Below are positions 1,775-56,148 of a stretch of DNA of 64,000 nt, one piece after another (position 1 is the first letter of the stretch; each line of letters starts with the position of its first letter). Both the position numbers and the translations under genes were made by a program. Source of the DNA: Acidimicrobiales bacterium. GTDB lineage: Bacteria > Actinomycetota > Acidimicrobiia > Acidimicrobiales > CATQHL01. The DNA lies in assembly GCA_965242895.1 (NCBI GenBank), contig OZ251507.1, positions 2,592,286 to 2,656,285 of the forward strand. The letters are read 5' to 3'. The notes beneath the pieces are model-generated. The model searched no databases. It saw only the letters and a list, made by a program, of their open reading frames with translations, and was not told the DNA's origin.

Positions 1775-1874
1775 GGAACGGGTAGCTAATTCCGCTGAGG
1801 GCACGGAAGTGTAAGCGGGCGTCACGCCCGTCGAAGTTGCCATTCTGGAACGGGTAGCTAATTCCGCTGAGGGC
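1775..1874. repeat. Direct duplication with exact 72-bp period in the inter-paralogue spacer
   Basis: GGAACGGGTAGCTAATTCCGCTGAGGGC occurs at 1775-1802 and 1847-1874. A degenerate third copy (GGACAGGGAAACTAATTCCGCTAAGGGC) is at 4999-5026 in the next spacer. Confidence 0.9.
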
Positions 1875-1994
1875 GTGAATAGGGCACTCGATGAATGGGC
1901 GGTGTTCGTGAGGTCTTCTAGGGGACAACTTCTTGTGGGTCGTCATTGCGTCTAGTCGCAAGCAACAGAATGCTCAAAGTCTTAGAGTTGCAAG

Positions 1995-2125
1995 GTGAAT
2001 GACTTTCAAGCGCAAGTTGATCGAAGAGGCAGATGCCGCTGAGAGTGACATGGTGAGGGCGTGAACGTCTCTAAGCCGAAGTTGATCGGGGTGGCGGATA
2101 CCGCTGAGTGTGGCAAGGTGAGAGT
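1995..2125 (+). repeat. Two degenerate tandem copies (~65-bp period) of the methyltransferase start region upstream of paralogue 2
   Basis: GTGAATGACTTTCAAGCGCAAGTTGATCGAAGAGGC starts at 1995. GTGAACGTCTCTAAGCCGAAGTTGATCGGGGTGGCG starts at 2061. Both mimic the real start GTGAACGTCTATAAGCCGAAGCTGATTGAGGTGGCG at 2126. The 2061 copy opens a 22-codon uORF (VNVSKPKLIGVADTAECGKVRV) whose TGA (2127-2129) overlaps the GTG at 2126. Confidence 0.8.
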
Positions 2126-4966
2126 GTGAACGTCTATAAGCCGAAGCTGATTGAGGTGGCGCTGCCCCTCCATGCGATCAACAAGGCGTCGGCGCGGGAG
2201 AAGTCGATCCGGCATGGGCATCCGTCGACGCTGCATTTGTGGTGGTCGCGGAAGCCTTTGGCGGCTTGTCGGGCTGTGCTGTGGGCTTCGTTGGTGGATG
2301 ACCCGTCGGCGCACCCGGACAGGTTTCCGACCGAAGAGTCTCAGGTCGTGGAGCGCAAGCGCTTGTTCGGAATCTTGGAAGACTTGGTGGTTTGGGAGAA
2401 CAGCAACAATACGGATGTGCTAGCCGAGGCTAAGGCTGAGGTTGAGCGGTGTTTCCCAGGCGGGCCGCCGGCGGTGCTCGACCCGTTTGCCGGGGGTGGC
2501 TCCATTCCGTTGGAGGCTCAGCGGCTGGGGTTGACGGCGTTGGCCGGCGAGTTGAATCCGGTGGCGGTTTTGATCAACAAGGCGATGCTGGAGTTTCCGA
2601 CGCGTTTCGCAGGGCGACCGCCGGTGCATCCTGAGGCCAGAAGTGCTTCCAGCACGGGGAGCAGGGGGCGGGGGCGGCGTTCGGATCGATCCGAGGGCGC
2701 CGAGGGTGCTGATAGTGATTTCACCATGTGGAGCGGGGCGCAGGGGTTGGCTGCTGACATCAGGGCTTACGGGGCTTGGATGAGGGACGAAGCTCAGCGC
2801 AGGATCGGGCACTTGTACCCGGACGCTGTTGGCCCTGACGGGGAGAAGTTGACTCCGATTGCGTGGATTTGGGCTAAGACTGTGCGGTCTCCTGACCCAG
2901 CGTGGGAGGGGCATGTGCCGTTGGTTAGCTCGTGGACGCTTCGTAAGGCGATGCGAGGCAAGCCCGAGGTGTGGGTGGAACCGATCGTGGACAAGGCAGC
3001 TCAGAGTATTTCTTATCGTGTGAGAGAGGGCAGTGCCCCGCCGACCTTAGAACGCACTGTCAATAGGGGGAATGGGGTTTGCGTCGCCACTGGCGCGGCG
3101 ATTCCGGTGAACTACATAAGAACCGAGGGGCAGGCGGGGCGCATGGGTGCACATCTCTTGGCGGTCGTGGCTGAAGGGAATAGAAGACGTCAGTATTTTG
3201 AATCTTCAGCAGCGGATGTCAATGTCTGTCAGGCAGCAGCCGAACTTGCAGAGACTGGCTGGAAGCCTGCCGGCAACCTACCCCCCCGAGGAAAAGGGTT
3301 GGGGTTCAGCGTGCAAAACTATGGCTATGAGAAGTGGTGGCAGTTGTTCACCGACCGTCAACTCGTGGCCTTGACCACGTTTTCTGATCTCTTGGGTGAA
3401 GTCCGTGAACAGGTTCTTGATTGTGCGAGATACGCCGGTCTAGCAGACGATGGGGTTCGACTGCGGGACGGAGGAGCGGGTGCGGTCGCCTACGCTGACG
3501 CGGTTGTGACCTACTTGGCGTTCGTGGTCGATAAGTGTGCCGACTACTGGTCGAAAGTTAGTACTTGGATTAATTCCCGCGAAACAATTAGAAGTACGTT
3601 CGTACTGCCTGTCATCTCAATGTCTTGGGATTTTGCTGAAGTCAATCCGTTTTCTTCGTCTACAGGCAATTGGCTGGGACAACTAGAGTGGGTGTGCAGG
3701 GCTGTTGAGCGCCATCCGGCGAGAGGTGATGCGGAGGTTGAGCAGAAGGATGCTCGGGTAAGGACACAAGAATCAGTCGGGTGTTTGATCTCAACAGACC
3801 CTCCCAATTACGACAACATCGGCTATGCGGATATCTCCGACTTTTACTATGTGTGGCTGCGTCGTAACCTCGCTGATGTCTGGCCGGATGAGTGTGCCAC
3901 GCTGTTGTCGCCGAAAGTTGACGAACTAATCGCTGATTCCAGTCGTCATGGGGGCAGGAAGGAAGCTCAAGAACACTTCGAGTCGGGGATGGCCGAGTTC
4001 ATGGCTGCGGCTGCGGCATCGCAGCATCCTGATGTTCCTACCACTATTTACTACGCCTACAAAGCTACGGAAACTTCAGAAGAAGGCAGAGTGCGTTCGA
4101 CAGGTTGGGACACGTTCTTGCAGGCAGTAATCGATGCCGGTTTGCAAGTCACTGCTACTTGGCCTCTGCGAACAGAACGACAAATCAGATCACATTTCTT
4201 TGGTTCTACTGCCCTCGCTTCCTCGGTTGTTCTAGTTTGTCGTCCTCGCCCGGCGTCGGCTTCTCTCGCTACTCGAAGCGAGTTCATCGCTGCGCTTCGT
4301 GAAGAACTCCCGCGGGTGATCAAGCTCCTGCAGTCTGGCAACATTGCTCCCGTCGACTTGCCCCAGTCGACAATCGGCCCTGGCATCCAAGTGTTCTCCC
4401 GCTATGCCAGGGTTATCGAGGCCAGCGGTACGCGGATGCCTGTGAGCGACGCTTTGGCAATCGTCAACGAGGTGCTCGACGAGGTTCTCCACGGGGAGGA
4501 AACCGAGGTGGACGCTGAAACTCGCTTCGCCTTGGCTTGGTACACGCAGCACGGCTTCGAAGCCGGCCCGTTTGGTGGATTTGGTGGAGCGGAGTCCGTA
4601 GCTAGGGCAAAGAACACTGCCATTGAAGAGGTGATCAAAGCTGGGATAGGTGAAGCCACCGCTGGGAGGTTCCGTCTGTACGCTCGTTCGGAACTCGATC
4701 CCGACTGGGATCCCTCAAGCGGCACCAGTCTGATTGCTTGGGAGGCGCTCCAGCATTTAGCGGCGCGGTTAGAAAGGTCGGAGTCGCAGGCGGCTGATTT
4801 GCTTGCGCGCCTAGGAAGCACCGCCGACGGCGCCCGCCAACTCGCCTATCTCCTGCACAAGATTGCTAGCGGCAACCGCTGGGCGGAAGAAGCACTCACC
4901 TACAACAATCTCATAACTGTCTGGCCGATACTAATGATGTTTCCACGTGTGCAACTGACACTTTAG
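2126..4966 (+). CDS. DUF1156-family DNA methyltransferase, tandem paralogue 2 (motif IV reads DPPN instead of DPPY)
   Basis: N-terminus is VNVYKPKLIEVALPLHAINKASAREKSIRHGHPSTLHLWWSRKPLAACRAVLWASLVDDP (DUF1156 signature). Motif I is DPFAGGGSIPLEAQRLG. Motif IV is STDPPNYDNIGYA. The ORF track starts at GTG 2108; I prefer GTG 2126 by alignment with paralogue 3 (MSTYRRKLIEV). Confidence 0.85.
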   Translation: MNVYKPKLIEVALPLHAINKASAREKSIRHGHPSTLHLWWSRKPLAACRAVLWASLVDDPSAHPDRFPTEESQVVERKRLFGILEDLVVWENSNNTDVLAEAKAEVERCFPGGPPAVLDPFAGGGSIPLEAQRLGLTALAGELNPVAVLINKAMLEFPTRFAGRPPVHPEARSASSTGSRGRGRRSDRSEGAEGADSDFTMWSGAQGLAADIRAYGAWMRDEAQRRIGHLYPDAVGPDGEKLTPIAWIWAKTVRSPDPAWEGHVPLVSSWTLRKAMRGKPEVWVEPIVDKAAQSISYRVREGSAPPTLERTVNRGNGVCVATGAAIPVNYIRTEGQAGRMGAHLLAVVAEGNRRRQYFESSAADVNVCQAAAELAETGWKPAGNLPPRGKGLGFSVQNYGYEKWWQLFTDRQLVALTTFSDLLGEVREQVLDCARYAGLADDGVRLRDGGAGAVAYADAVVTYLAFVVDKCADYWSKVSTWINSRETIRSTFVLPVISMSWDFAEVNPFSSSTGNWLGQLEWVCRAVERHPARGDAEVEQKDARVRTQESVGCLISTDPPNYDNIGYADISDFYYVWLRRNLADVWPDECATLLSPKVDELIADSSRHGGRKEAQEHFESGMAEFMAAAAASQHPDVPTTIYYAYKATETSEEGRVRSTGWDTFLQAVIDAGLQVTATWPLRTERQIRSHFFGSTALASSVVLVCRPRPASASLATRSEFIAALREELPRVIKLLQSGNIAPVDLPQSTIGPGIQVFSRYARVIEASGTRMPVSDALAIVNEVLDEVLHGEETEVDAETRFALAWYTQHGFEAGPFGGFGGAESVARAKNTAIEEVIKAGIGEATAGRFRLYARSELDPDWDPSSGTSLIAWEALQHLAARLERSESQAADLLARLGSTADGARQLAYLLHKIASGNRWAEEALTYNNLITVWPILMMFPRVQLTL

Positions 4967-5148
4967 TTTCGCGCCGAGTAAGAACCTGTTGCCACACTGG
5001 ACAGGGAAACTAATTCCGCTAAGGGCGAGAATGGGGGGCGATGCGTTGGCGGTGCTCGCGAGGTCTTCTAGGTGGGTAACTTCTTGCAGGTTGTCATTGC
5101 GTCTAGTTACGGCAACGTGATGCTCAAAGTCTTAGAGTGGCAAGGTGA

Positions 5149-8070
<2,922 letters not shown>

Positions 8071-8323
8071 ACGGGTTCTAGAGGTCGAACGGGGACATCG
8101 AACCCCGTCGGAGGCTAGGCGCCCAAGGTCGAGGAAACTCCCGATGTTCTAGACCGCAGGCCGTTCTTGGTCTGATCGGCCAAGGCGCCTGCTGGGGGTA
8201 TCCGGCCTTGCTCGCTACCGATACTTGTGCAAGGAGTTGTCGGCGATGGGGGGTATCAAGACATCTGCCTATGGCCGTGCTAGCGCTGGCAGCCCATCGA
8301 TTTGCTTGATGAAACGCAAAGTA

Positions 8324-8352
8324 TTGCGATAGTTACACTTTTCTTTGATAGT
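8324..8352 (+). promoter_or_regulatory. Putative sigma70-like promoter of the XRE-ImmA gene
   Basis: TTGCGA (8324-8329), then 17 nt, then GATAGT (8347-8352), in an AT-rich stretch. A purine-rich RBS AAGAAGGGG lies 7 nt before ATG 8387. This is a pattern match only. Confidence 0.3.
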
Positions 8353-8386
8353 ATGTAAATAATGCCACAAAAAGAAGGGGCTACAC

Positions 8387-9622
8387 ATGGAAAATTTACA
8401 TACAACACTTATGAGAGCACGAGAGCGAATTGGTTATTCACAAGAAGCAATTGGAGCCGCGCTCGGAATCAGCCGAGCCATGGTTTCTTACTGGGAGACA
8501 GGCAGCCGCAAGCCGAACGACCGCCAACTCAACGCCCTTGCGCGCCTTTACGAAGTGGAGTTGGCCGATCTGCTGGCGGGCCGCAACATTGAACCGGCGG
8601 GCGCAAACCTTGCTGAGCTGATGTTACGCGCCAATGGAGGAGTCGACCCTGCTTCGTCGCCGGGTATCCATGAGTTTGTTGGTTTCCTGGAACGCCACGC
8701 TGAACTAGCGGAGATGTTGCAACTGCCTATTCGCGGCATGCGAGAAAGTCCGTTCACATTTCGGGAAGAATTCTCGGCAAAGAGTGATATAAGCCGAAAG
8801 GCCGAGGAAGTGCGCGCACATCTTCGCCTTGGCATTGCGCCTATTTATGACCTCGACGTGATATGTGAGACATTGGGAATAACGCTCTACAGGGCGTCTC
8901 TTGGAGGAGACTTGCGCAGGTTTCCGTCAGGGGCGTTCCTAAAGCACCCCGAGGTGGGGTTTTCAATTCTTGTGAACTTAGACATGACGCCAGGGCGCCG
9001 TCGTTTTACTATCGCACATGAACTTGCGCACGCTCTCTTCCACAGTCACGACAACCCTGCGCTGGTTTCGCAGACGGGCGCCTCAGGCGCCTCAAGGGAG
9101 GCGTTCGCTGACGAATTTGCGGGCGAATTCCTTATGCCTAGAGAGGGAGTTCGTCAATTCATGGAGAGGATGGATATGCCGCGGCGTGTGAGCGACCCCG
9201 TGGAAGCAATCCACATTCAGCGGTATTTCCGCGTTTCATGGGCGACAACACTTGTGCGGCTATATCAGATGAACACACTCTCCGAAAGCGATTTTCAGCA
9301 ATTTAGAAGAGAAGTGAAGCCGGTGTTTCTAGCGCGTTCTCTGGGATACGAGATATATCCGGAAGAACTCAAGCAATTCCCCGAACTTTGGACACTCCGC
9401 AGATTTCCCAGGCTGTTCCTACGCATGCTGCGAAAGGCGGTTCGTGACGAGATGATGTCGATCTCGACAGCGGCATCGTTTGCTGGTCTAGCCGTGCCTG
9501 ATGTCGTCAACCTCATCGGAGGGCCAGGGTCAGGTGCTAGCGAAACCGAGGTGAACGATCACGCTGTTGAGTTTGAAGAATACGAATCAAGCGACATAAT
9601 CTCGTTCGCACAGGCTGCGTAG
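8387..9622 (+). CDS. XRE-family HTH fused to an ImmA/IrrE-type (COG2856, M78-like) zinc metallopeptidase domain
   Basis: The N-terminal HTH is LMRARERIGYSQEAIGAALGISRAMVSYWETGSRKPNDRQLNALARLY. The HEXXH motif is in FTIAHELAHALFH, followed by ADEFAGEFLMP. Confidence 0.8.
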   Translation: MENLHTTLMRARERIGYSQEAIGAALGISRAMVSYWETGSRKPNDRQLNALARLYEVELADLLAGRNIEPAGANLAELMLRANGGVDPASSPGIHEFVGFLERHAELAEMLQLPIRGMRESPFTFREEFSAKSDISRKAEEVRAHLRLGIAPIYDLDVICETLGITLYRASLGGDLRRFPSGAFLKHPEVGFSILVNLDMTPGRRRFTIAHELAHALFHSHDNPALVSQTGASGASREAFADEFAGEFLMPREGVRQFMERMDMPRRVSDPVEAIHIQRYFRVSWATTLVRLYQMNTLSESDFQQFRREVKPVFLARSLGYEIYPEELKQFPELWTLRRFPRLFLRMLRKAVRDEMMSISTAASFAGLAVPDVVNLIGGPGSGASETEVNDHAVEFEEYESSDIISFAQAA

Positions 9623-9818
9623 ATTATGGGCGAATTACTTGCCCCAAGAGATGAGAGACAAAGGCTTCTGGGATACTGAGCCGCCTTTTCCAGGCGCCGG
9701 AAACTGAGTAGCCTGTTGCCATATGAATCTGGAAACTAAAGGGCAACGCCTGGGCTCGCATCCAGTTTCGAAAAAGAAAGATTCGCAGAACTAGCTGACA
9801 GCATAGGGGAATCAACAG

Positions 9819-12800
9819 ATGGCAACGATGACCAACAACGCAAGGGTCGCAAAAGCGCTCGAATTATTGCGCGACGGGCTAGCGCCCAAGTGCGAAGAGA
9901 CATGGAAGGGGTTCTACGGGGGCGGCTGGCTGAAGACCGTCAACCGCATGCAGCGCACACAGGCTCACGATCCCTCCACAAGCGATGTGTCCTTCCTGCT
10001 TAACGCGATCAAATCCACTTGGGATGAAGTGTTTTCACATGGCTTCCCGAGGGCGGTGCTCTCCCTGGTTTTTGAAGCGGCGACGGCGCGCAATCGATGG
10101 GCGCACCAGGAACAGTTCTCCAGCGACGACACCAATCGTGCGCTGGACACCATGGAGCGCTTGCTCGATGCGTTCGGCAATGTCGAGCAGCAGCAACAGA
10201 TGCGCAGTCTGCGGCGTGACCTGATGCGCCGCGTCTTTGAGCAGGAATCGCATAACGAGCGTCGCAAAGCTTCCGCCAAACCCACAGAGGGGGAGCCTCA
10301 AGGGGGGCTGACGCCATGGCGAGAGATCATCACCCCGCACGAGGACGTGCGTTCAGGGCGTCTCAACCAGGCCGAGTTTGCAGCTGACCTGCACGAAGTC
10401 GCCTCAGGTCGGGGCGAGGAGGAATACGGAGACCCTAAGGCGTTCTTTGCTCGAACCTACATGACCAGGGGTTTGGAAGACCTTCTAGTGGGGGCTGCGC
10501 GGCGTCTCTCCGGCGGGGCCGGCGAACCGGTCATTCAGCTGCAGACCAACTTCGGAGGCGGTAAGACGCACAGCATGATCGCCCTCTATCACCTCGCTTC
10601 CGGTGTTCCGCCCAGTGAGTTGCCCGGGGTGGGGGAGTTGCTGTCCGGTGAGAACTTGACGCTGCCATCGGAGATCAGCAAGGCCGTGCTAGTGGGTCAT
10701 AAAATCTCGGTGTCCACGCCAGAGACGGAGGACATGGAGGGGAGAACGCTTCCCGACGGCATCAGGCTGCACACGCTCTGGGGCCACTTGGCTTATCAAC
10801 TCGGCGGGAAGGAAGGTTACGAACTCGTTCGAGCCGACGATGAGGCTGCAACCAACCCAGGTGACTCCCTTCGGGCTTTGTTCACCCGGTTCGGCCCTGC
10901 CGTGGTGCTCATCGACGAGTGGGTTGCCTACGCCCGTCAACTTCCTGACGGAGGGTCGGGGTGGCGTGCGCGTGAGGCGGGAGGCGATTTCGACACGCAA
11001 TTCACCTTCGCCCAGGCGCTCACCGAAGCGGCGGCTGCGGTTTCGAACGTGGTTGTGCTTATCACAGTACCGGCTTCCGACATCGAGGTGGGAGGTGAGC
11101 TGGGCAGGTCTGCCTTGGCACGGCTGGAGAACGTGGTCAGCCGCACGGCTAAGCAGTGGCAGGCGGCCTCGCCTGCGGAGTCCTTCGAGATCGTCCGTCG
11201 GCGGCTATTCGACGAGATTGCAGCAGACAAGGTGAAGATGCGCGACGCCGTGATCGCCGCTTTCAGCAAGTGGTACGGCGACAAAGCGAGAGCGCCCGAT
11301 TTTCCCATCGAGGTCAAGGAAGCGGAGTACCGGCGCAAGATGGAAGCTTGCTATCCCATCCACCCCGAACTCTTCGACCGGCTGTTTGGGGATTGGTCTA
11401 CCCTCGACAAGTTCCAGCGCACCCGCGGGGTTCTGAGGTTAATGGCCCTGGCTATCTCCGAATTGTGGAAACGGGGCGACCAGTCTCTGCTGATAATGCC
11501 TGGCAACCTGCCGATGGACTCGGGGGTGTTGGTCAGCGAGATGACGAAATACCTGGAAGATGGCTGGGACCCGGTTATCAAGACCGACATCGACGGTGAA
11601 GGTTCCCTCCCGCTCCGTCTTGACAGGGAAAATAAACACTTCGGGCGTTATTCCGCCGCCCGCCGCGCAGCCCGCACCGTTTATATGGGTTCTGCACCTG
11701 GGGGAGAGGGTATAGAAGGTGGGGTGCAACGCGGTATCGACCTCAAGCGGGTGGTGTTGGGTTGCGTCCAGCCGGGTGAGCCGCCTAACCAGTTCGTCGA
11801 CGCTCTCAGGCGGTTGTCGGGGTCGGATGCAGCCACGTATTTGTATGTGGACGGCGCTTCGTACTGGTACTCGCGGCAGATCAACGTCGCGCGTCTGGCT
11901 CGAGACAGGGCAGAGGGATATCTTGACAGGGACGCCGACGAGGAGGTGCGGAAACGGATCGAAAGGCAGTCCGGTCGGGGGAGGAGAGGAAGTTTCTCTG
12001 CAGTACAGGTGTTTGCCGAGGGGCCGGGGGACGTGCCCGACGATGACGACGGTGTGAGACTCGTGGTCTTGACCCCCGAGAAGACCCACTCGAGGGGTGA
12101 CGAGCATTCTCAGGCGTCTGGCTTAGCGGGGGAGATATTGAACCAGCGAGACGCCGGACCGAGGCTGAATCGCAACATGCTGGTGTTCACGGCGGCGGAC
12201 GCAAACCGTCTGATAGACCTGCGCGCAGCGGCAAAGTCTTTCATGGCGTGGAAGTCGATAGACGAAGAAGCCGAGACTCTGAACCTGACCGCCCACCAGA
12301 ACAAGCAGGCCGATACCAAGTCCAAGGAAACCGACGAGCAGGTTGAAAGTCAGATCGCGGAGACTTTCATCCTAGTGCTCACCCCTAAGGGAAAGCCAGG
12401 CACTTCGGAGATCGATTGGCAGACCACCCGCGTGTCGCCGAGCAGTAAAGAGAGGTGGCTGGCAGCGCGTGTGAGCAGGAAACTGGAGAGCGAGGAGAAA
12501 CTGATCTCCACCTACGGAGGGGTGCGGGTGAAGATGGACTTGGATCGTTTCAAGCTGTGGTCGGAGCGGGGCGACCTGCAAGTGCGGACGCTCTGGGAGA
12601 AGTATGCGAGATTCCTGTATATGCCCAGGCTGGCCTCTTTGAAGTTCCTGCTGGAAGCAGTAGGCGATGGGCCGGGGAGCACGATGTGGAGGGAGGAGAC
12701 CTTCGCCTACGCCGAAGCCTGGGACGAGCAGAGGGAGACCTGGGTAGGAGTGCGCTCCGGTGCGCGGGCGAATGCGAACATAAGCGGATTTGTGGTGCAG

Positions 12801-17913: not shown

Positions 17914-17915
17914 TC

Positions 17916-18095: not shown

Positions 18096-18134
18096 CCAAC
18101 GCGGCCGCAACGCGGAATCGAGGGGTTGCAGTGT

Positions 18135-18265: not shown

Positions 18266-18281
18266 TGGAACGTACAGAAAC

Positions 18282-19493: not shown

Positions 19494-19510
19494 AAGAAAG
19501 GCAGTCTGTG

Positions 19511-37436: not shown

Positions 37437-37450
37437 TAAGACTAGTTAGA

Positions 37451-39971: not shown

Positions 39972-40273
39972 ACTGCTGAGGTTGGTGAAGGAGGGTCGAC
40001 TTTGAAGAAGCCTCGCCGGAGCGTCCCGGCGAATGTCGGCGAATGCCACCGGTGCGTCCGGCGAATGGCCGTTGTGGTGGCAGGATAGGCAGGGTGCTGC
40101 GTCGCCGCGAATACCGGAGGCGAGCATTTCGCTGCCCAGCCGTTGTGGTGGCAGGGGTAGGCAGGGTGTTGCGTCGTGCTGTGTTTGGTGGGGCGTTGTT
40201 GTTGTGGGCGGTCGTTGCGGGTGCCGTTGTGGTGGCAGGATAGACAGCGTGCTGCGTCAGTTTCATCAAATAT

Positions 40274-42094: not shown

Positions 42095-42679
42095 TTGCTG
42101 GTAAGTGGCCGCTGGTAAGTGGCTGTTAGAAAGTGAGCGCAGGCAAGTCACTGCTGGTAGGTGGCCGCTGGGAACTGGCGTTTGACTTTCTGACTAGGCC
42201 TGTTTGCTGGATTGACCTAAGTTTCCTCAGTAGGTGGTGTTTAGTTAGGTAGGCGATAGCCACTTCGTAGCGGCCCGCTCAGTCACAATGCAGGTGGCAG
42301 CGCAGCCTGCGTTGGTCAGGTAGGTGATCTCCACTTCGTAGCGGCGGCTATAGCGAGGTGGAGGTCGATCATCAAGGTCGCAAGCAACCCAGCCGCCACG
42401 TCGACTCGCTTCCTGGTGTTCATAGCGAGGTGGAGTATGGAGGTTTCCCACTTTCGAAGTCGCCGAGGTGTCGTCACTTTGAAGGTGGCGCCCGTCGCGG
42501 GGTAGACGACAAATGGGATTGAGGCATCCCCCTTCTACTAGCACAAGACAGCATCGCCCGGAGAGCCGCGGGGAGGGCGTCGGATGGGATTGGGATGTCC
42601 AAGACCAGGCCGGCTGCCTGGCGTAAATTTCTCGAGGTCGCGGGGAGGGCGTCGGGGGGGTTGGGATGCCCGCTTCCTG

Positions 42680-45274: not shown

Positions 45275-45392
45275 ATATAAATTGCTTTTAATCCCAAAAA
45301 ATGACTTTAAAAGCAGATAACTTGAGAAAGTATTTATATGTAGACAGATTTATATGCTGACAGACAGCCTGAGTGCCAGAGCAGAGGACTTC

Positions 45393-45840
45393 GGGCGTGG
45401 AGCAAGTTGAGGTTGGGGGAGTGGTGCGTGGGGGTCGAGAGGTGGCGCCGGCGGAGGGCGGCTTTGGGCGTGGAGCAAGTTGAGGTTGGGGGAGTGGTGC
45501 GTGGGGGTCGAGAGGTGGCGCCGGCGGAGGGCGGCTTTGGGCGTGGAGCAAGTTGAGGTTGGGGGAGTGGTGCGTTGAGGTCGGTGGGTGTCGTCGGCGG
45601 AGAGGCGGCTTTGGGCGGGAAGTGATTGAGGTTGGGGGGAGTGGTGCGTTGAGGTCGGTGGGTGTCGTCGATGCTCAGAGGGCTGTGGGCGGGGAGCAAC
45701 TTGGGTGGGGGAGTGGTGCGTTGAGCTTGAGAGTGGCGTCGGCGGTCAGGTGGCTTTGGGGCGGGGAGCAACTTGGGTGGGGGGAGTGGTGCGTGGGGGT
45801 CGCCGAGTGGCGTCGGCGGACAGACGGCTTCAGCCAGAGA
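45393..45840. repeat. Minisatellite, ~73-bp unit x 6-7, G-rich on the + strand
   Basis: Units begin GGGCGTGGAGCAAGTTGAGGTTGGGGGAGTGGTGCGT at 45393, 45466 and 45539, then degenerate at 45613, 45687 and 45758. The first three units are nearly identical. The period is not divisible by 3. Confidence 0.9.
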
Positions 45841-46065
45841 TCAAATAAATTCGGAGGAACGATACACAGCACCTAACGTCGAACACAGCACCTGCCGTCA
45901 AACTGAGCACCTAACGTCAATTGGTTTTCAGAGGGTTTTAACACATAGTTTCCCCTGTCAACTCGAGGTTGGGAGGTGCCTCAGAGGACGGAACTGATTG
46001 ATCCTCACTGGGTGACATTCACCGGTTCCCCTGTCAACTCGAGGTTGGAGGTGACTCAACGGGGT

Positions 46066-46455
46066 GGAAAGTCTTGCATACGATCCCCAAGATTCAAGGA
46101 CGCAGTCCGTCAGGCGCAAGCGCCTGTTGGCCAAGATTGGAATCTTGCACACGATCCCGAAAATTTAGGGCAACACCTCCACGCCGCTAGAGGACATCAT
46201 CATGGTGGAGTCTGGCACACAGTCCCCAAAATTTACGTTCGAAGCTTGGAGGGCGCTGAAGGCGACGACGTCTGTCGGAAAGTCTTGCATAAAGTCTCTG
46301 TCGTTACACCAGCAGGCGTTATCAGTAGTTCACGGCGACGATGCCTTTGAAAAGTCCCGCACACGCTCCCGACAATTTAAGGTCGGCGGTCGTCAGATGA
46401 GCAGCGTCAGCGGCGTCGTCGGAAAGTCCCGCACACGCTCCCCAAATTTAAGGAC
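46066..46455. repeat. Degenerate ~71-73-bp periodic array (6 units) sharing a ~35-nt core
   Basis: The core GGAAAGTC(T/C)(T/C)GCACACG(A/C)TCCCCAAA(A)TTTAAGG occurs at 46066, 46138, 46207, 46277, 46348 and 46421. The last unit overlaps the menB stop codon. Confidence 0.8.
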
Positions 46456-47650
46456 GCCTTGGAAACTGGCTGAAGTCGGGCGGGGTCTTCTTGACGTAGC
46501 TGTCGCGCCCGTGCTGAGCCTCCTCGCTTAAGTAGTAGAGGAGGGTGGCGTCGCCGGAGAGTTGCTGGATGCCGGCCAGTCCGTCGTCGGCAGCGTTCAT
46601 GGACGCCTTCAGCATTCGCAGCGCCAGCGGCGAGTGTTCCAGCATCCGCCGGCACCATCGCATCGTCTCTTGTTCGAGTTCTTCGAGGGGAACGACGGCG
46701 TTCACCAGCCCCATGTCCAGCGCTTCGGAGGCGTCGTACTGAGCGCACAGGTACCAGATTTCTCGCGCCTTCTTCTGTCCGACGATGCGCGCCATGAGAC
46801 CGGAGCCGTAGCCGCCGTCGAAAGAACCGACCCGCGGCCCGGTCTGGCCGAAGACGGCGTTATCGGCGGCGATGGTGAGGTCGCAGACGAGGTGCAGGAC
46901 GTGCCCGCCGCCTATGGCGTAGCCGGCCACCATCGCCACTACGGGTTTGGGTGTGCGGCGTATCTGAACCTGCAGGTCGAGCACGTTGAGCCGCCCGATG
47001 CCCTTGCGGGCGACCTCGTCGCTGCCGATGTATCCGTCGTTGCCGCGGATGCGCTGATCTCCGCCGGAGCAGAAAGCCAGGTCGCCCGCCCCGCAGATGA
47101 TCACAGCCCCGATCCGATCGTCGTCGCGGGCGCTCGACATGGCGTCGGAAAGTTCGAAGAGGGTCTGCGGGCGGAAGGCGTTGCGGGACGCCGCTCGACA
47201 GATGGTGAGTTTGGCGACCCCCTCGCTGGTGGCATAGGAGATGTCGCCGTAGCCGCGGTCGTGAACCTGCCAGTCGGCGCCCGGGCGGATGAGGCTCTGC
47301 TCGGGGCTTTCGAAGCCGCGTGGTCGCGCCCGCCGGAATGATCTGTCGTAGGGGGTTCGGGCGTCGGGGTGCGTAGCGGGGTCGGCGGGCGGGTGCGTTG
47401 CGTCCGCGGCGTCGGCGGGCGGGGCGTCGGCGGAGGCCGGGTTCGTGGGGTCGACGGGCGGAGGGGCGCTGGCGTCCGGGTGACTGACGGGCGTGGCGTC
47501 CGCGGCGTCGACGGGCGTGGTGTCCGGGTGCGTGGGGTCGGCGGGCGGCGCGTCCGCGGCGTCGGCGGGGTGCGCGGCGCCAGCGTCCGAGGGACTGCGC
47601 GGGGAGGGTGAGGCAGTTGGCGGAGGATGGGAGTCGGCGGGTTGTGTCAT
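46448..47650 (-). CDS. menB: 1,4-dihydroxy-2-naphthoyl-CoA synthase
   Basis: The crotonase-fold core includes [50 protein letters not shown], and [38 protein letters not shown]. The N-terminal ~95 aa are a Pro/Ala/Asp low-complexity extension, so the start is uncertain. Confidence 0.9.
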
Positions 47651-47987: not shown

Positions 47988-49400
47988 TCACAGCCGCCGC
48001 ATGGGAGCGCTCGCTCGGAGTGCTCGGAGGGGATCGACTCCGAGCCCGGGGCCTGACGGCACGACGAGGCTGCCGTTCACCGACAGCGGAGGTTCACAGA
48101 GGTCTGCGGCCAGCAGGTCGGCGGTTCCCAGACCGACGGCTGTGCCGCTTCCCAGGGCGGCTGCGAGGTGCAGGGCAGTGGTGAGCCCGACGGCGCTTTC
48201 CAAGGCGGAACTGATCACGACTTTTGTGCCCGCTGCGCGCAGGGCCGCTGCAGCGGCAGAGAGTTCTGTCACAGCGCCGAGGACGGAGGGTTTCAGCACA
48301 GCCGTGTCCACCCCCAAGGCGGAAGGGGTCGGCGGGAGCGTCTCGGCGTCCGTCTGGGAATCCCTGAGCCCCAGGGTCGTCTGCGTGGGAATGGAGAACT
48401 CCGGCAACGGGGTCGCGGCGTCCGTCTGGAAATCCCTGAGCCCTAGGAGGTCAGACAGCGGCGGCAGGCTCTCGTCGACGGCCAGCGGGACGGGGGAATC
48501 GGCCTGCAGCAGCCTGATCTCCTCCAGACCTCTGCAGGGTTCTTCGACGAACTCCGGCCGGTATTCGGCCAGGGCTTCGAGTCTGGGGAGAGCCTCAGCC
48601 GGACTCCAGGCGCCGTTCAGGTCGATGCGAATGTTTGCGGAGGAGCCCACGGCGGATCGCAGCGCCGCCACCCGCTCCAGGTCGTGTTCGAAGGGGTTGA
48701 AACCCGCCTTGAGCTTGAAGGTCGTATATCCAGCCGAGTGCGCTCGACGGGCTTCGCAGGCGACTGACTCAGCGCTCTCGCCGTCGAGGAGAACGGCAGT
48801 AGGGACAGAAAGAGGCGACGTGGGCGTCGTGGGTGCTGCGGAAGGACGGGGCGACGGCTGCCGGGTCGCTGAGTTTGCCCCGTCGTGTCCAGGCGCCGGA
48901 TACGCCGGATACGCCGGTGTGAGGTTTGCGGAAGGACGGGGCGACGACCGCCGGAGGAACTCAAACAGGGGAATGCCCAGCTGCTTGGATGCGAGGTCGG
49001 CCAGCGCCCCTCCAGCGGCGGCCCAGGCGCAGGGAGAGTGCCTTAAGCACGTTCTGGCGCGGGTCAGCAAAGCGTGGAGGCTGCCGTCGAAGGATTCGAC
49101 GGACAGCCATTTTTCCAGACCTGCGATGGCTCCGGTCAACTCCTCGGTGCTGCGCCCCGGCAGGGGAACGGCTTCCCCCCAGCCGCTGGCGCTGGGGGCG
49201 CCGAGGTCGGCGCCTTCGAGGATTTCGGGCGAGGTGCTGCCGCTCCACCCTGCGCTCGAGCCTCCGACGGCAAGCTGCAGCAAGACCCCTCGACGGCTGC
49301 GGATCGTTCCGCTTCCGGTCACCAGCGGGCGCTTCAGCGGAAGTTCGTACTCGAACAACGCAGCGTTCAGCGCCCCGAGTTCGATGGCGTGCAGGTTCAA
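47988..49400 (-). CDS. menC: o-succinylbenzoate synthase (enolase superfamily)
   Basis: The motifs FKLKAGF, IRIDLNGAW, FVEEP and LAVDESL occur in the expected order, and the gene sits in the men cluster. The TTG start overlaps the menD stop (TTGA). It contains low-complexity insertions. Confidence 0.75.
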   Translation of the reverse strand: MNLHAIELGALNAALFEYELPLKRPLVTGSGTIRSRRGVLLQLAVGGSSAGWSGSTSPEILEGADLGAPSASGWGEAVPLPGRSTEELTGAIAGLEKWLSVESFDGSLHALLTRARTCLRHSPCAWAAAGGALADLASKQLGIPLFEFLRRSSPRPSANLTPAYPAYPAPGHDGANSATRQPSPRPSAAPTTPTSPLSVPTAVLLDGESAESVACEARRAHSAGYTTFKLKAGFNPFEHDLERVAALRSAVGSSANIRIDLNGAWSPAEALPRLEALAEYRPEFVEEPCRGLEEIRLLQADSPVPLAVDESLPPLSDLLGLRDFQTDAATPLPEFSIPTQTTLGLRDSQTDAETLPPTPSALGVDTAVLKPSVLGAVTELSAAAAALRAAGTKVVISSALESAVGLTTALHLAAALGSGTAVGLGTADLLAADLCEPPLSVNGSLVVPSGPGLGVDPLRALRASAPMRRL

Positions 49401-51529
49401 TGCGTCGGGGATGGCTTCGAGCCTCGCCCGGCGAACCCCGTCGAGCCTCGCCCGCCCGCCGCCCCAAGAACCTCCTCGACCGCTCGGCTCACCGCCGCGC
49501 CCACGATGCGGTGTTCAGCGACGTTGGCGTCTGCCTCCACCGGCACTTCGACGACGGCGATCCCGCCGCCGGCGATGCTCTCGGCGAGGGCGTGCTTCAA
49601 CTCATCGGCGGTGTGCGCCAACCTATGACGGACTCCCATCCCAGTCAGAAGCCGAGCGAGGTCGACGTCGTGGGGGGTGTGAAAATACTGCCGGAACTCA
49701 TCAGGGGGCACGGCGCCGGAGATCGGCAAAAAGGAGAACACGCCGCCGCCGTTGTTGTTCGGCACGACGATGGTCAGGTCGATCCCCATTTTGACCCCCC
49801 TCAGCAGTCCACCGACGTCGTGCAGCAGGGCTAGGTCGCCGGCGTAGAGGATCACGGGGTGTTCGCTGCCCGCCGCCGTTCCCAGGGCTGCCGAAACCAC
49901 TCCGTCGATCCCGCTCACGCCTCTCTGCGCAGTCACTCGAAGGGGAAGAGGGCGGGGGGCGAGGAAGGCGTCCAGATCGCGCACGGGCATGCTGTTGGAG
50001 ACATACAAAGTGGCGTGTGCGGGGAGCGCTTCCCCCAGCGTGCGGGCGACGCCGGCTTCGAGCAGGGGGTCGGTTTGGACACTCTCGGCAATAGCGGCAA
50101 GGGCGGCGCTCTCGGCCTGCTGCCAGTCGGCTAGCCAGCCGGCGGGAGCGCCGCTGCGGGCGCCGTCTTCCGCGGAGGGCAGTCTTTCCCATCCCGAGAT
50201 CGTGAGAGATTCGACGACGGCGGCGCACAGCGGGCCTTCCCCGCTTGCGAAAGTGCGGTCGGGAAACGTCTCCGGTTCTTCCCAGCGGCTAGACGGGTCT
50301 ACGAGGAGGTTGAGGGAGGAAAAACTCGCCAGTCCCTCGCGCAGGGTGCGGGTGGTCGGCGGATGACCGATTCTCAGAATCACTTCCGGCTCGCGGGTGC
50401 TCCAGAATGACTTCACAGCGGCAAGGTGGGTGCCTGTTGTCAGCACGACGCTGCGGGTTCGCTCGTCGAGTTGTGAGGCGTCTTGCGGTTCGTTTGGTTG
50501 TGGGTCGTCTTGCGACTCGTTCGGATGTGGGGCGTCGACTTGCGGCTCGTCTGGTTGTGAGTTGGCATGGCTGCCAGACTGCTGTCCGCTGGGACGAAAG
50601 CGCAAATTGCTGGCTGCGTCTGCCAGCACCGGCCAGCCCGCAAGGGCGGCCATCTCGATGATCCGATCGGCAGCCTCTGGGGGGAAGTCACTCGGCCCCA
50701 CTGCCAGCAGCCCACGCTCGCATTCCCGAATGATCGCTGCCAGTTCCTCGACTTCGATGCCGATGGCCGGAGGAGCCGGAGGAGCCGGAGGAGATGGCCG
50801 CTGCCAGCGGCTGCCCAGTTCGACGGGGGCTTCGCCCGGAGCTCGCCGGCGCCCGAGGTCGGACGAATGTGCTTCGGGTCTCTCTTGCACCTCGGACGTC
50901 TCGACGAATTCCAGCGGGTCGGGTGCGTGCCGCGCTCGGGGCTCCAGCGGCTCCCTGAACGGGAAGTTCAGGTGGACAGGTCCGGGTCGCCCGCCGGACG
51001 CTTCGGCGAAAGCTCGCCTGGCTGCGTATCGAGCGTGCAGGGCAGGAACTTCACTGGGTACGGGCAACTCGGCGAACCATCTCACGTGGCTGCCGTAGAG
51101 GCGTATCTGGTCGATGGTCTGGCCTGCGCCTCTGTCTCGCAATTCGGGCGGCCGGTCGGCTGTGAGAATCAGCAGGGCCGCTCCGTCGTAGTAAGCCTCC
51201 ACCACGGCGGGGAAGTAGTTGGCGGCGGCGCTGCCGGAGGTGCAGATGAGCGCCGCTGCGCCGCGTATCTGCTTGGCCAAGCCGAGCGCAAAGAAGCCGC
51301 CGGAGCGTTCGTCGTGATGTATCAGAACCTGCAGACCGGCGGAGTGCGCCGAGATCACCAGCGGGGCGGAGCGCGCCCCGGGCGAGCAGACCACGTGGCG
51401 GAGCCCGTTGCGGGCCAGTTCCGTGAAGAACTCGCGGCAATAGTCGTAGGCAGGGTCTTGCGGTCTGTCCGCAGGGACGGGAGCGGGAGCGGGTGCTGCG
51501 GGCAAGGGGCTCGGCTTTCCGTCGGTCAT
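49397..51529 (-). CDS. menD: 2-succinyl-5-enolpyruvyl-6-hydroxy-3-cyclohexene-1-carboxylate (SEPHCHC) synthase
   Basis: The ThDP-enzyme N-terminus is FFTELARNGLRHVVCSPGARSAPLVI...DERSGGFFALGLAK. The C-terminal ThDP motif region is GVSGIDGVVSAALG...NNNGGGVFSFLP. Confidence 0.85.
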   Translation of the reverse strand: MTDGKPSPLPAAPAPAPVPADRPQDPAYDYCREFFTELARNGLRHVVCSPGARSAPLVISAHSAGLQVLIHHDERSGGFFALGLAKQIRGAAALICTSGSAAANYFPAVVEAYYDGAALLILTADRPPELRDRGAGQTIDQIRLYGSHVRWFAELPVPSEVPALHARYAARRAFAEASGGRPGPVHLNFPFREPLEPRARHAPDPLEFVETSEVQERPEAHSSDLGRRRAPGEAPVELGSRWQRPSPPAPPAPPAIGIEVEELAAIIRECERGLLAVGPSDFPPEAADRIIEMAALAGWPVLADAASNLRFRPSGQQSGSHANSQPDEPQVDAPHPNESQDDPQPNEPQDASQLDERTRSVVLTTGTHLAAVKSFWSTREPEVILRIGHPPTTRTLREGLASFSSLNLLVDPSSRWEEPETFPDRTFASGEGPLCAAVVESLTISGWERLPSAEDGARSGAPAGWLADWQQAESAALAAIAESVQTDPLLEAGVARTLGEALPAHATLYVSNSMPVRDLDAFLAPRPLPLRVTAQRGVSGIDGVVSAALGTAAGSEHPVILYAGDLALLHDVGGLLRGVKMGIDLTIVVPNNNGGGVFSFLPISGAVPPDEFRQYFHTPHDVDLARLLTGMGVRHRLAHTADELKHALAESIAGGGIAVVEVPVEADANVAEHRIVGAAVSRAVEEVLGAAGGRGSTGFAGRGSKPSPTH

Positions 51530-51644: not shown

Positions 51645-53384
51645 TCAGTCCGTCGGGTCGAGCACTGAGAGCATCGCGCCCAGTTTGGTGAGGGTCTCGG
51701 CCAACTCACCCTCCGGGGTGGAGCCTTCCATCACGCCGGCGCCCGCGAAGACGGCCATCTCCGCCGAGTGCTCCCGCAGCAGCCCGCAGCGCAGCGCCAA
51801 GGCGAGTTCGCCGTTGCCCTGCAGGTCGCAGTAGCCCAGAGGGGATGCGAACCATCCTCGCTGGAAGGTCTCCTCGGATCGGAGAAAGTCCAGGGCGGGC
51901 GGCGTCGGCAGACCCCCCACTGCAGGGGTGGGGTGGAGGAGTGCGGCCAGCCGCCAGAGTTCGCCTGGGGGAGTGTCGACCGCCCCTCGCAGAGAAGTGT
52001 GCAGGTGATGGATGCCCGGCAGCGAGTTGACGGAGGGCTCGCCCAGAGGATCGACGAACGACACGCCGGCGGAGCGAAGACGAGCGTAGAGGTGATCTAC
52101 CACTGCGGCGTGCTCGGCGCGTTCCTTGGGGTTGGCGAGCAGTTCTGCCGCCAAGCGCCCGTCGGCTGCGGGGTCGTTGCTGCGCGGGCGTGAGCCGGCG
52201 AGAGCGGCGGTGTGCAGCATCCCATTCTCCGTGTGCAGCAGCAACTCCGGCGTGGAGCCCAGGAAGGTGCTGGGGCCTCTGCCTATGGCGAAGGTGGCTG
52301 CGATCTCGAAGCGTTCCGAAAGGCGGAGGAGCAACTCCCGCACCAGGGCGGGGTGAGCCCCTTCGCTCAGCTTCACCGAGGCGCGCCGGGCGGCGACCGC
52401 CTTGTGGAGGTTGCCGGCGGCTAGTTGTGCGAGGGCGGAGCGGACGAGACGCCGGTAGGACTCCTCGAGTTCCCCAGAGGCGAGGAGTTGGCCGGATACG
52501 CCCACGCGTCGTTTCCCAATTCCGGCTGCCGCCTCTAGCAGAGCGCGGGCTTCGGACTTTGCTGCGGAGAGTTCGACCTCGGTGCATTCCTCCTGCAGGA
52601 TCAGGCTCCAGCGAAACCCGTTTCCGCGGTCGATTCCTAGGATTTTCGGCAGCACCAGGCAGCCGCTGGGGAAGTCCTGCCAGTCGCTGGGGCAGTCCTG
52701 CCAGTCTTGGCGGTCTCTGGGGAAGTCTTGCCAGTCTTGGCGGTTCGCAGTGTTCGAGGGTTTCGCAGGGATGTGCGCCCTTTGCGGCGAGCCGGCGGCT
52801 TGGCCGGCGGGTGAGGTGGGGACTGGGTCGGTGGGTGAGGTGGGGGCTGGGTCGGCGGGTGAGGTGGGGGCTTGGCCGGTGGGTGAGGTGGGGGCTTGGC
52901 CGGCGGCGGGAGCGTAGAAGCTGAACCCCCCGTAGAGCCAAGGAGTCGTAGTAGGTGGACTGGAAGCCGCAGATTCCGGCGGTTCCGAACCACGGGCGGG
53001 TTTCAGGGTGCTCGAACTCGTCTCGGAGAAGGCGGGCGGATTCGTTTCTGGAGGCTCTGAACGGGCGGGTCGCAGGGCTGCGACGGCTTGACGGAAGGCC
53101 GATTCGAAATGCGCCGGGCCGGACGGACGCCACTCCCTGGCGGCTCCGACTCCTACGAGCGTGAGACCTTTCCGGGGCTGCATCCACAGGAAACGCGGCT
53201 GCCGTCCGGCGGCAGCGAGCACCGCCGCTCCGTCCACCGAGGCGGTGAGGTCGGTCAGTTCGTGACATTCGTAGCGGGGGAGAACAGGACGGAGTTGGCT
53301 GCCGTCGGGCGGCCCTTCGGGAGTTTCCCCTGCGGCGTTTGCGGCCAGAGGCGCGTCATCGGACGCCTGCTTGATGGGTTTCAC
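51645..53384 (-). CDS. menF: Isochorismate synthase
   Basis: The chorismate-binding C-terminal half includes LHPTPAVGGLP, RGWFASPLGY and FAGAGVMEGSTPEGE. The N-terminal half carries PTSP and WQDFP repeat insertions. Confidence 0.8.
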   Translation of the reverse strand: MKPIKQASDDAPLAANAAGETPEGPPDGSQLRPVLPRYECHELTDLTASVDGAAVLAAAGRQPRFLWMQPRKGLTLVGVGAAREWRPSGPAHFESAFRQAVAALRPARSEPPETNPPAFSETSSSTLKPARGSEPPESAASSPPTTTPWLYGGFSFYAPAAGQAPTSPTGQAPTSPADPAPTSPTDPVPTSPAGQAAGSPQRAHIPAKPSNTANRQDWQDFPRDRQDWQDCPSDWQDFPSGCLVLPKILGIDRGNGFRWSLILQEECTEVELSAAKSEARALLEAAAGIGKRRVGVSGQLLASGELEESYRRLVRSALAQLAAGNLHKAVAARRASVKLSEGAHPALVRELLLRLSERFEIAATFAIGRGPSTFLGSTPELLLHTENGMLHTAALAGSRPRSNDPAADGRLAAELLANPKERAEHAAVVDHLYARLRSAGVSFVDPLGEPSVNSLPGIHHLHTSLRGAVDTPPGELWRLAALLHPTPAVGGLPTPPALDFLRSEETFQRGWFASPLGYCDLQGNGELALALRCGLLREHSAEMAVFAGAGVMEGSTPEGELAETLTKLGAMLSVLDPTD

Positions 53385-54596: not shown

Positions 54597-55952
54597 GTGT
54601 TGCCGACCCCGTCTCGAGTCGCAGATTCGAGCGCCGACGGCCTAAGACCCCTAAACCCAAACGAATCGCCGAACTTGTTAAACGACGCCATTCCGAGCAG
54701 TTCGCAGAAACGCTCCTTCAGTACGCGCCGGCGCTCCTTCAGTACGCGCCGTGCCTCGTGCCGCCTACTCGCTGTCCTGGCCGTGTTCGCCTCGACTGCC
54801 GGCGTCTTAGCCGCACCCGCTTCGCCTGCCATTTCGCAGGAGAACATCTCCGAAGCGAGGGAAGACCTAGACAGGGTCAAGGAGGAGAAACTCAGGCTGC
54901 AGGCTCGGATCGACCTGATTGACGCCGAGGACATTGACGTCCTGGCGGCGCTGAACGCAGCTCAGGAGCTAGTCGACCGCCAAGAAGCCAAGGTGTCGGC
55001 CGTCCGTCAAGAACTCCGCACCACGACCGCCCAGATGCGTCAAAAGGAGATTTCGCAGCAGTACGCGCAGATGGACATTGCGGATATCCGAGAAGAGGTC
55101 AAAGAGTTGGTGGTGGAGTCCTACTTGCGCAACGAGGCTCAAAGCGTCGAGGCGCTGCTGGGCACCGACGACATTACGCAGGGTCTGCGGCGGCTGGCCT
55201 TGTTGAACATCGTTCAGTCGAACACCAACGACCTGATGGATCAGGTCCGCCTCAAGGAGGATGAGCACTCCGAAGCCGCCTTGGAGTTTTCGGAGACTTT
55301 GCGGGAAGTGCAGCAGCTAGAGGCGGAGCTGGCGGCGGACTTGGCGGTTCTAGAGACGCAGCGTCAGGAGCAGTTGCTCATCAAAGTGGAGCTGGACGTA
55401 CGTCGGCGCAAGCTGCAGCGAGAGTACGCAAACTGGGATCAGGAAGCACGCAGACTCGGAGATTTCATCCGCCAGGAGATCTACGAGGAGGAAGTTCGCA
55501 GGCAGCAGGAGGAGCTTAGAAGGCGAGCCCAGGAACTTGGTGTGCTGGCCACGGCTGAGACTGCTGCCCTGGGCTTTCTCTGGCCGACGGCGGGATACGT
55601 GACGTCTGGATACGGAAGCCGGCTGCATCCGATACTGGGAATCGTCAGGCTTCACGCTGGGATAGACCTCGGCAGTGTTCTGGGTCAGGGTATCTACGCA
55701 AGCAAGTCAGGGGTGGTCATCCGTGCGGAGTGGGTGGGAGGTTACGGAAACACCGTGGTCATCGATCACGGAGCGGGTTTTTCTACCCTCTACGGCCACC
55801 TGCACGCTTACAGCGTCAAGCTGGGGGATTTCGTGCAGGCTGGCCAAGAGGTGGGGAAACTGGGTTCCACGGGACTCTCCACCGGCCCGCACCTGCATTT
55901 CGAGATACGGGTCAACGGCATAGCGGAAGATCCGCTCAAGTACCTGTCTTGA
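54597..55952 (+). CDS. Secreted M23-family peptidase with long coiled-coil N-terminal region
   Basis: The C-terminal LytM domain is GYGSRLHPILGIVRLHAGIDL...GNTVVIDHGAGFSTLYGHL...GSTGLSTGPHLHFEIRVNG. Signal-like segment LLAVLAVFASTAGVLAAPASP. The start codon is uncertain. Confidence 0.8.
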   Translation: MLPTPSRVADSSADGLRPLNPNESPNLLNDAIPSSSQKRSFSTRRRSFSTRRASCRLLAVLAVFASTAGVLAAPASPAISQENISEAREDLDRVKEEKLRLQARIDLIDAEDIDVLAALNAAQELVDRQEAKVSAVRQELRTTTAQMRQKEISQQYAQMDIADIREEVKELVVESYLRNEAQSVEALLGTDDITQGLRRLALLNIVQSNTNDLMDQVRLKEDEHSEAALEFSETLREVQQLEAELAADLAVLETQRQEQLLIKVELDVRRRKLQREYANWDQEARRLGDFIRQEIYEEEVRRQQEELRRRAQELGVLATAETAALGFLWPTAGYVTSGYGSRLHPILGIVRLHAGIDLGSVLGQGIYASKSGVVIRAEWVGGYGNTVVIDHGAGFSTLYGHLHAYSVKLGDFVQAGQEVGKLGSTGLSTGPHLHFEIRVNGIAEDPLKYLS

Positions 55953-56040
55953 CGCTCTTGACGCCCCTAGCCGCATGGGGACGCTGCGGGCGTTGACTGC
56001 GGCTGAGAGAGGCGGGACAGCCTCAGGCCGGATCGAAGCG

Positions 56041-56148
56041 GTGATCGGGTGAGGACTTACTCCAGCACTGCGCTCCGAGTTCAGTGATGAGATTGACGCC
56101 GCCGTTTCAGGAGTGATCGGGTGAGGACTTACTCCAGCACTGCGCTCC
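56041..56148. repeat. Exact 36-bp direct repeat, 72 bp apart, duplicating the pncB start region
   Basis: GTGATCGGGTGAGGACTTACTCCAGCACTGCGCTCC occurs at 56041-56076 and 56113-56148. The upstream copy opens a 12-codon uORF (56049-56087, VRTYSSTALRVQ) that mimics the pncB N-terminus MRTYSSTALLTDQ. Confidence 0.95.

Follow-up and report, generated by a model that had tools for sequence, protein, structure and literature searches.

Repeats of 36–37 bp and spacers of approximately 35–37 bp are typical of several subtypes of CRISPR. Target duplications made by transposases are 2–14 bp long, those made by casposases are 14–15 bp, and we know of no integrase other than Cas1-Cas2 that duplicates targets of about 36 bp. 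The DNA analysed here is a stretch of 64,000 nucleotides (contig OZ251507.1, positions 2,592,286 to 2,656,285, assembly GCA_965242895.1; hereafter the window) from an uncultured Acidimicrobiales lineage. Those of its relatives that bear names are called "Candidatus Poriferisodalis" and "Candidatus Poriferisocius", which suggests sponge symbionts. Unrelated sequences recur throughout the window at a spacing of 72 bp, in units that almost certainly comprise inserted DNA and a duplicated target of ordinary host sequence. Comparable integration has been described in the laboratory. Off-target integration by Cas1-Cas2 gave rise to "neo-CRISPR" loci in E. coli overexpressing these proteins (Nivala et al. 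2018, on the account given in bioRxiv 10.1101/148544 and PMC7054753), and off-target integration was obtained in vitro for P. furiosus (PMC6698737). Natural neo-CRISPR cases, as papers citing Nivala et al. 2018 describe them, are few and only putative, with circumstantial evidence from two other species.

Spacings between direct repeats were measured in two ways. A strict lag scan required at least 25 of 30 matches in a 30-bp scoring window at lags of 50–100 and excluded short-period repeats; the same scan was applied to 66 related loci. In addition, a histogram of direct-repeat spacings was built from 11-mer seeds. The strict scan of the window returned 11 events at lag 72 and 0–2 at each other lag, while in the seed count 18 events fell at lag 72 and no more than six at any neighbouring lag, with a harmonic at 144. 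By our own arithmetic, the Poisson probability of the lag-72 count is approximately 1e-14 (background approximately 0.26 events per lag). Tandem Repeats Finder was run on the whole window and reported many short-period repeats, with 45389–45820 (73 bp, 5.9 copies) as the sole whole-unit array near 72 bp. Most loci are missed by this program because the pairs match over only approximately 28–40 bp and the remainder is unrelated. In total, approximately 16 loci with at least 30 units were found in the 64 kb.

A sequence-only reading of the window had listed ten such loci and proposed a sharp preference for a 72-bp length across unrelated sequences. All ten were present, at or a few bases from the positions it gave. 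The pair at 32687 and 32761 was found, but at lag 75 and not at the spacing of 74 bp first reported, and the series placed at 38998 is better positioned at 38992, 39064 and 39136. Six events had been missed, at 18809, 32570 (lag 70), 37640 (lag 70), 42241 (lag 71), 45950 (lag 76) and 48340 (in MenC). The preferred length is borne out by the lag-72 peak, and the units do not belong to one dispersed element, as had been supposed, their sequences being unrelated between loci. Comparison of the period histogram with those of related genomes had been set beforehand as the refuting test: a lag-72 peak was found in the window, in L004 (OZ241998.1, the closest relative genome) and in L003, with essentially none in the other 62 syntenic loci. 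Periods of 25, 42 and 65 bp, also mentioned in that reading, are present but are ordinary whole-unit tandem repeats, which are abundant in the clade. The observation holds, with more force than was first supposed.

The anatomy of the units was determined from 30 curated events, drawn from the window and from relatives. Mean identity between the two copies of a unit is 92%, whereas the insert and the in-register neighbouring stretch are 24% identical, which is the chance level. The modal length of the duplication is 36 bp, and in our own tally it measures 35–37 bp in 13 of the 15 youngest events; the insert measures 35–37 bp. Duplication and insert sum to 72 bp in 23 of the 30 events and to 73 bp in four. 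Lengths are therefore uniform across unrelated sites (mode 36 and 36), with one exception, the array in the HNH gene (32 + 40). Most seeming length outliers can be resolved; L004 14112, for one, proves to be a duplication of 37 bp carrying a 1-bp indel. In the youngest events the copies are 100% identical and the adjoining 36 bp are at chance identity, with a sharp boundary and no gradient. Copies are 100% identical at 56041 in the window, at 17853 and 18901 in L004 and at 5746 in L003; since several events have identical copies, the process is recent or ongoing. Units within one array have a common repeat and differing inserts. We are close to certain that the units consist of an insert of approximately 36 bp and a target-site duplication of approximately 36 bp. 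The figure of 72 bp is thus not a duplication length but the sum of the two parts. "Tandem duplication", the term used in the sequence-only reading, does not describe these units: only about half of each is duplicated, and the other half is new DNA that is missing in close relatives. The 24-aa units noted in the HNH gene likewise exist, but are composed of a 32-bp repeat and a 40-bp insert and are not duplicated whole.

The youngest event in the window, at 56041–56148, consists of a 36-bp insert (56077–56112) between two identical 36-bp copies, each bearing the start codon of pncB. The copies at 56041 and 56113 agree at 36 of 36 bases and then show no similarity. In L001, a metagenomic relative whose PncB is 95% identical in amino acid sequence to that of the window, the region aligns base for base, minus exactly 72 bp (the 36-bp insert and one copy carrying the start codon). 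At the 5' end of znuA the window has an array of four 37-bp copies with exact 72-bp spacing (37102, 37174, 37246 and 37318; array 37102–37354) and three different 35-bp inserts. On the minus strand, this segment codes for the beginning of the ZnuA signal peptide, and 37102 is the gene-proximal copy. A single copy is present in L083, which is shorter here by exactly 216 bp (3 × 72). In L081 and L082 there are two copies and one common spacer, which is unlike the three in the window (shuffle p = 0.17–0.95); independent hits on this 36-bp target therefore occurred in different lineages. The expectation that copy number would differ between strains was realised here, with one, two or four copies in close relatives.

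Single-copy targets were also found at two further sites. The event at 37640–37739 (lag 70, 30 + 40), in the znuA-znuC intergenic region, is single copy in L081, from which 70 bp are missing. An in-frame event in menC (48340–48447, minus strand, 36 + 36) adds 24 aa, the protein reading LGLRDFQTD-AATPLPEFSIPTQTT-LGLRDSQTD; the addition is missing in P0122 (80–87% identical) and in all ordinary orthologs, and the DNA alignment of this MenC loop with L067 is messy. Where the site of a relative is empty, nothing homologous to the insert is present. The unit content of the array at 38992–39171 differs among the window, L081 and L082. For the L004 events, the corresponding intergenic DNA of the window is too diverged to give clean alignments for reciprocal empty sites.

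The process is specific to a small clade and independently active in its branches. The scan of L004 gave nine events at lag 72, four at lag 73, one at lag 58 and none at the remaining lags, at sites that differ from those of the window. L003 contains one perfect 37 + 35 event within MenD (LEPSAGALSPTT twice, around 12 new residues), and L068, L082 and L083 together hold five further events at lag 72 or 73. In 62 other syntenic loci (1.03 Mb), two events were found at lag 72. The cumulative effect of the process is visible in protein lengths: MenC is 412–668 aa in the clade versus approximately 345–380 aa elsewhere, and most proteins of the window exceed their L003 orthologs in length. The majority of events lie between genes or at gene ends. 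Each of the four in conserved coding sequence is at lag 72, and all eight with other lags (70, 71, 73, 75) lie outside genes, which is consistent with a reading-frame filter on coding events. As 17 intergenic events are also at lag 72, the period is intrinsic to the mechanism. A tendency for the repeats to lie at gene 5' ends, remarked on previously, was also observed: three duplicated targets (pncB, znuA and the gene at L004 17853) contain a start codon or signal peptide. These may be survivors, in that the duplication would recreate an intact 5' end beside the gene and would hence be harmless.

The best explanation, which we consider probable without holding it to be secure, is ectopic spacer integration of the Cas1-Cas2 type, giving rise to "neo-CRISPR" units. 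An integrase would cut the chromosome at positions staggered approximately 36 bp apart and join a DNA fragment of approximately 36 bp between them; gap repair would then duplicate the 36-bp target on either side of the insert. In these terms the duplicated target would correspond to the CRISPR repeat, the insert to the spacer and the enzyme to Cas1-Cas2. In this small Acidimicrobiales clade the integrase would act ectopically and with little sequence specificity, so that mini "neo-CRISPR" loci would be seeded chromosome-wide. Repeated hits at some sites would produce arrays of three to six units with different spacers, and recombination between flanking copies would later have amplified some units in full. 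Selection would retain tolerable events only: intergenic ones, in-frame additions of 24 aa to surface loops, and events at gene 5' ends, where an intact start codon and N-terminus would be regenerated beside the gene and a decoy copy left upstream. The enzyme is read as Cas1-Cas2 because a 36-bp duplication, a size-selected 36-bp insert, re-use of targets with different spacers and strain-variable spacer content are signatures of CRISPR adaptation. With slightly less confidence, we favour the view that an integrase with a 36-bp ruler, whether a deregulated Cas1-Cas2 or a non-Cas mimic, is now or was recently active chromosome-wide as an endogenous insertional mutagen, which seeds CRISPR-like arrays, rewires gene 5' ends and adds 24-residue loops (MenC from approximately 370 to up to 668 aa).

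The loci were compared with the described systems. They share with the neo-CRISPR loci of E. coli (Nivala, Shipman & Church, Nat Microbiol 2018, as relayed in the sources given above) a spacer-sized insert, a repeat-sized duplication of an ordinary target and two-repeat mini-arrays outside CRISPR loci. In those accounts the E. coli events were rare and needed overexpression of Cas1-Cas2, whereas the window clade has dozens of fixed events per 64 kb, clade-wide. Further differences from E. coli are that the targets in the window have no detectable motif, that events occur within genes and at gene starts, that arrays reach six units and that the enzyme is here only inferred. Canonical CRISPR arrays also consist of direct repeats of approximately 36 bp with unique spacers of approximately 36 bp, and close strains have common repeats with different spacer content and number. 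Unlike those of canonical arrays, the repeats of the window are locus-specific host coding or regulatory sequence, with no adjacent cas genes, recognisable leader or shared repeat family, and most loci have two repeats only. Casposons resemble the loci in that a target site is duplicated by a Cas1-type integrase. Their duplication is approximately 14–15 bp and their cargo of kilobase size with terminal inverted repeats; in the window a fragment of 36 bp is carried, the fragments have no ends in common, and 36 bp of target are duplicated. Events of this kind are known from the laboratory; their scale, natural setting, effects on genes and apparent lack of target specificity are new.

Several results weigh against Cas1-Cas2-type integration. 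Searches of the 64-kb window with Pfam, PADLOC and NCBIfam revealed no cas gene. There was no match to an Rfam CRISPR-DR family, either in the whole window at the gathering threshold or in 45.3–46.5 kb at an E-value threshold, and no canonical array of 36-bp repeats in the window or in the sequences of relatives examined. When the repeat of the array at 46066 was searched in one metagenome scan, only chance single matches and an unrelated 58-bp tandem repeat were returned and no canonical array. No protospacer for any insert was found by blastn-short in the window and approximately 1.1 Mb of clade loci. The sole match in that search was GCGACCCGCCCCTGAC, 16 nt shared exactly (E = 0.006) between the 45032 spacer of the HNH array (45078–45093) and a repeat/spacer junction of the znuA array (37205–37220); it is probably due to chance, but may mark a self-derived insert. 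Searches of INPHARED phages with 29 concatenated inserts, and of IMG/VR with five exact 28–29-mers, gave no match; the lineage is poorly sampled. The GC content of the inserts equals that of the host, so the inserts bear no foreign mark. No shared target motif was found at 28 sites with orientation inferred by expectation-maximization (information content 7.3 versus a null of 6.9 ± 0.4), though some targets were hit repeatedly. Off-target sites in E. coli reportedly resemble the native leader-repeat junction. The HNH array has parts of 32 and 40 bp twice, so that the sum is kept and the parts are not, and a fixed 36-bp ruler predicts otherwise. Finally, approximately 16 loci and at least 30 units in 64 kb is far above any off-target integration known to us.

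Several of these results would be accommodated by an enzyme of another kind with the same geometry, which is the main rival explanation. A non-Cas1 integrase or repair pathway (a novel mini-insertion system, or a nuclease with end joining) would make nicks 36 bp apart and capture 36-bp fragments, mimicking the geometry of CRISPR. The anatomy and the empty sites fit such an enzyme equally well, and the lack of cas genes or a canonical array in view, targets without a repeat-like motif, an HNH array summing to 72 from parts of 32 and 40, and an unprecedented density of events all speak for it. We nevertheless judge it unlikely. No such enzyme is known to make target duplications near 36 bp; narrow insert size together with array-like re-use of targets is a hallmark of CRISPR adaptation; and no integrase-like protein was found among the unannotated open reading frames (ORFs) of the window (Pfam, PADLOC, NCBIfam, PDB sequences). 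Ectopic Cas1-Cas2-type integration is therefore preferred over it.

The remaining explanations are each highly improbable. The sequence-only reading had taken the units for 72-bp tandem duplications arising by replication slippage, one half of which would later have diverged, with mycobacterial interspersed repetitive units and variable number tandem repeats (MIRU/VNTR) as the analogy. Those loci also have short units (40–100 bp), are often intergenic or at gene ends and have strain-polymorphic copy numbers. Short tandem repeats are in general plentiful in the clade, and whole-unit repeats with periods of 68–76 bp do exist (45389–45820, 34244–34416, L004 20041 and L081 8165–8500). However, MIRUs are whole-unit tandem copies of related families produced by slippage or recombination, whereas the units of the window are half repeat and half novel DNA and are unrelated between loci; with the insert 24% identical to its neighbour, similarity spans the whole unit at this period only at 45389–45820, and the analogy fails. 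For the half-unit class the tandem-duplication model is ruled out: inserts agree with their neighbours at chance level only, relatives with an empty site lack an insert homolog, and 100% identical copies lie, across a sharp boundary, beside 36 bp at chance identity. Slippage also offers no cause for a 72-bp preference across unrelated sequences. It is just as doubtful that the loci are decayed canonical CRISPR arrays with fragments scattered by rearrangement. Their repeat and spacer geometry would fit, and 46066–46456 resembles a degenerate CRISPR, but the repeat is different at every locus and there is no Rfam CRISPR-DR match. This candidate was rejected because the repeats (at pncB the start region, in ZnuA the signal peptide, in MenC a loop) are host sequences of which relatives have a single copy. 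Least probable of all is selection for 24-residue protein repeat modules, or an assembly artefact. Although 72 bp is 24 codons and some events lie within ORFs (HNH, MenC), most are intergenic and lags of 70, 71, 73 and 75 are also found; the pattern is shared by several assemblies made independently, in which the copies have decayed to differing degrees.

The origin of CRISPR arrays and the cost to the genome of promiscuous integration are open questions, for which the basis so far has been mostly overexpression in E. coli and a handful of putative natural cases. Were Cas1-Cas2-type integration correct, the clade would be a natural experiment with dozens of dated events per 64 kb, empty and filled alleles, arrays at one, two and four units, and integrations in essential genes. 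It would also reveal that adaptation machinery can contribute significantly to variation in protein length and regulation. On the wider view of an integrase with a 36-bp ruler, Cas or non-Cas, it would be the first natural system in which the birth of CRISPR-like arrays and their genome cost are directly observable. An integrase with such relaxed target requirements would also interest those who build DNA-recording tools. If the enzyme is not Cas1-Cas2, a new insertion mechanism would be indicated.

The other events of the window are as follows. The single event at 1764–1874 (lag 72) falls between an HmaB-like fragment and the methylase gene that follows; its copies (approximately 1767–1802 and 1839–1874) enclose an insert at approximately 1803–1835, with 28 bp exact and 39 bp agreeing at 90%. 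The event at 18809–18914 (lag 72, 34 + 38, 91% identity) is in a divergent intergenic region of the defence island. Three single events follow one another from 32402: 32402–32511, in an ORF-free region (lag 72/71, copies of approximately 39 bp with a 1-bp indel), 32570–32670 (lag 70/69, weaker and older) and 32686–32799 (lag 75, 39 + 36, 87% identity). Downstream of znuC, the array at 38992–39171 has three 36-bp copies and two different inserts. A convergent intergenic region contains the event at 42241–42345 (lag 71, 34 + 37, 85% identity), and 42567–42672 (lag 72 with a 1-bp indel) has 17 bp exact and approximately 33 bp similar. The event at 45950–46060 (lag 76/75) has 23 bp exact and approximately 34 bp with a 1-bp indel. 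A CRISPR-like degenerate array at 46066–46456 has six copies of approximately 36 bp (46066, 46137, 46205, 46277, 46349 and 46421) with five different inserts, and its last copy adjoins the menB stop codon. A target rule of "G first, C last" was seen in the window and was discarded, as it was not reproduced in L004.

The HNH array (44960–45135) has three 32-bp copies at exact 72-bp spacing and two different 40-bp inserts, and encodes 24-aa units in the N-terminal part of the DUF222-HNH ORF. This endonuclease gene (42680–45274) is missing at this position in L003 and L004 and looks like a mobile insertion. The HNH domain of its product weakly resembles IscB (E = 2e-4), and the N-terminal part also contains a 42-bp repeat of 3.8 copies (44622–44781). 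Repeats that are similar over their entire unit were found at 45389–45820 (5.9 copies, period 73–74 bp), at 34244–34416 (76 bp) and at L004 20041; they may be 36 + 36 units amplified by unequal recombination between flanking copies. The 76-bp tandem repeat at 34244–34416 contains a hairpin, and in L081 it is present as five units of 68–71 bp.

Other repeats were recorded in the window and its relatives. The 3 kb at 31600–34540 have no ORF of at least 150 aa and are packed with repeats, among them units of 20–31 bp ending in ACCTGAAAC (32846–32944) and a 26-bp repeat in three copies (33710–33786). The His/Asp-rich loop of ZnuA (36263–36660) is greatly expanded (approximately 130 residues) and consists of nested repeats of 6, 18, 45, 96 and 141 bp; a comparable expansion in L004 uses different units. 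Housekeeping proteins of the clade (L004, L003, L068 and, in the window, 40400–41015, 50470–50561 and 52797–52906) are also lengthened by low-complexity in-frame repeats of 12, 24 and 27 bp in loops and at N-termini. Short direct repeats are approximately 15 times more numerous in L004 than in ordinary relatives. A strong strand composition bias was found at 36000–46000 (AT skew −0.2 to −0.31, GC skew up to +0.19), where most genes are on the minus strand.

The left part of the window contains defence genes. An Hma-type defence island (96–13205) comprises three consecutive DUF1156/HmaB-like methylase genes, an M78-peptidase/helix-turn-helix regulator and a HEPN-DUF499 HmaC ATPase. The first methylase covers profile positions 411–953 only, and is hence truncated or runs off the window edge. 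The DUF1156/HmaB-like methyltransferase ORF at 5149–8070 contains a perfect (AG)21 repeat (6101–6142) that encodes (RE)n; a change of one unit shifts the frame, and this defence methylase may be phase-variable. PDC-M19B lies at 13260–14081. It is followed by a low-GC island at 14488–31560 (42–51% versus approximately 64%) with three ORFs of approximately 1,120–1,140 aa (14488–17913, 21857–25234 and 26350–29718), each followed by a small ORF. These three ORFs had no Pfam, PADLOC, NCBIfam or PDB match, and the last two are 78% identical. TIR, SLOG and ThsB-like genes (19424–21836) lie between the large ORFs, and the island may be an undescribed defence module.

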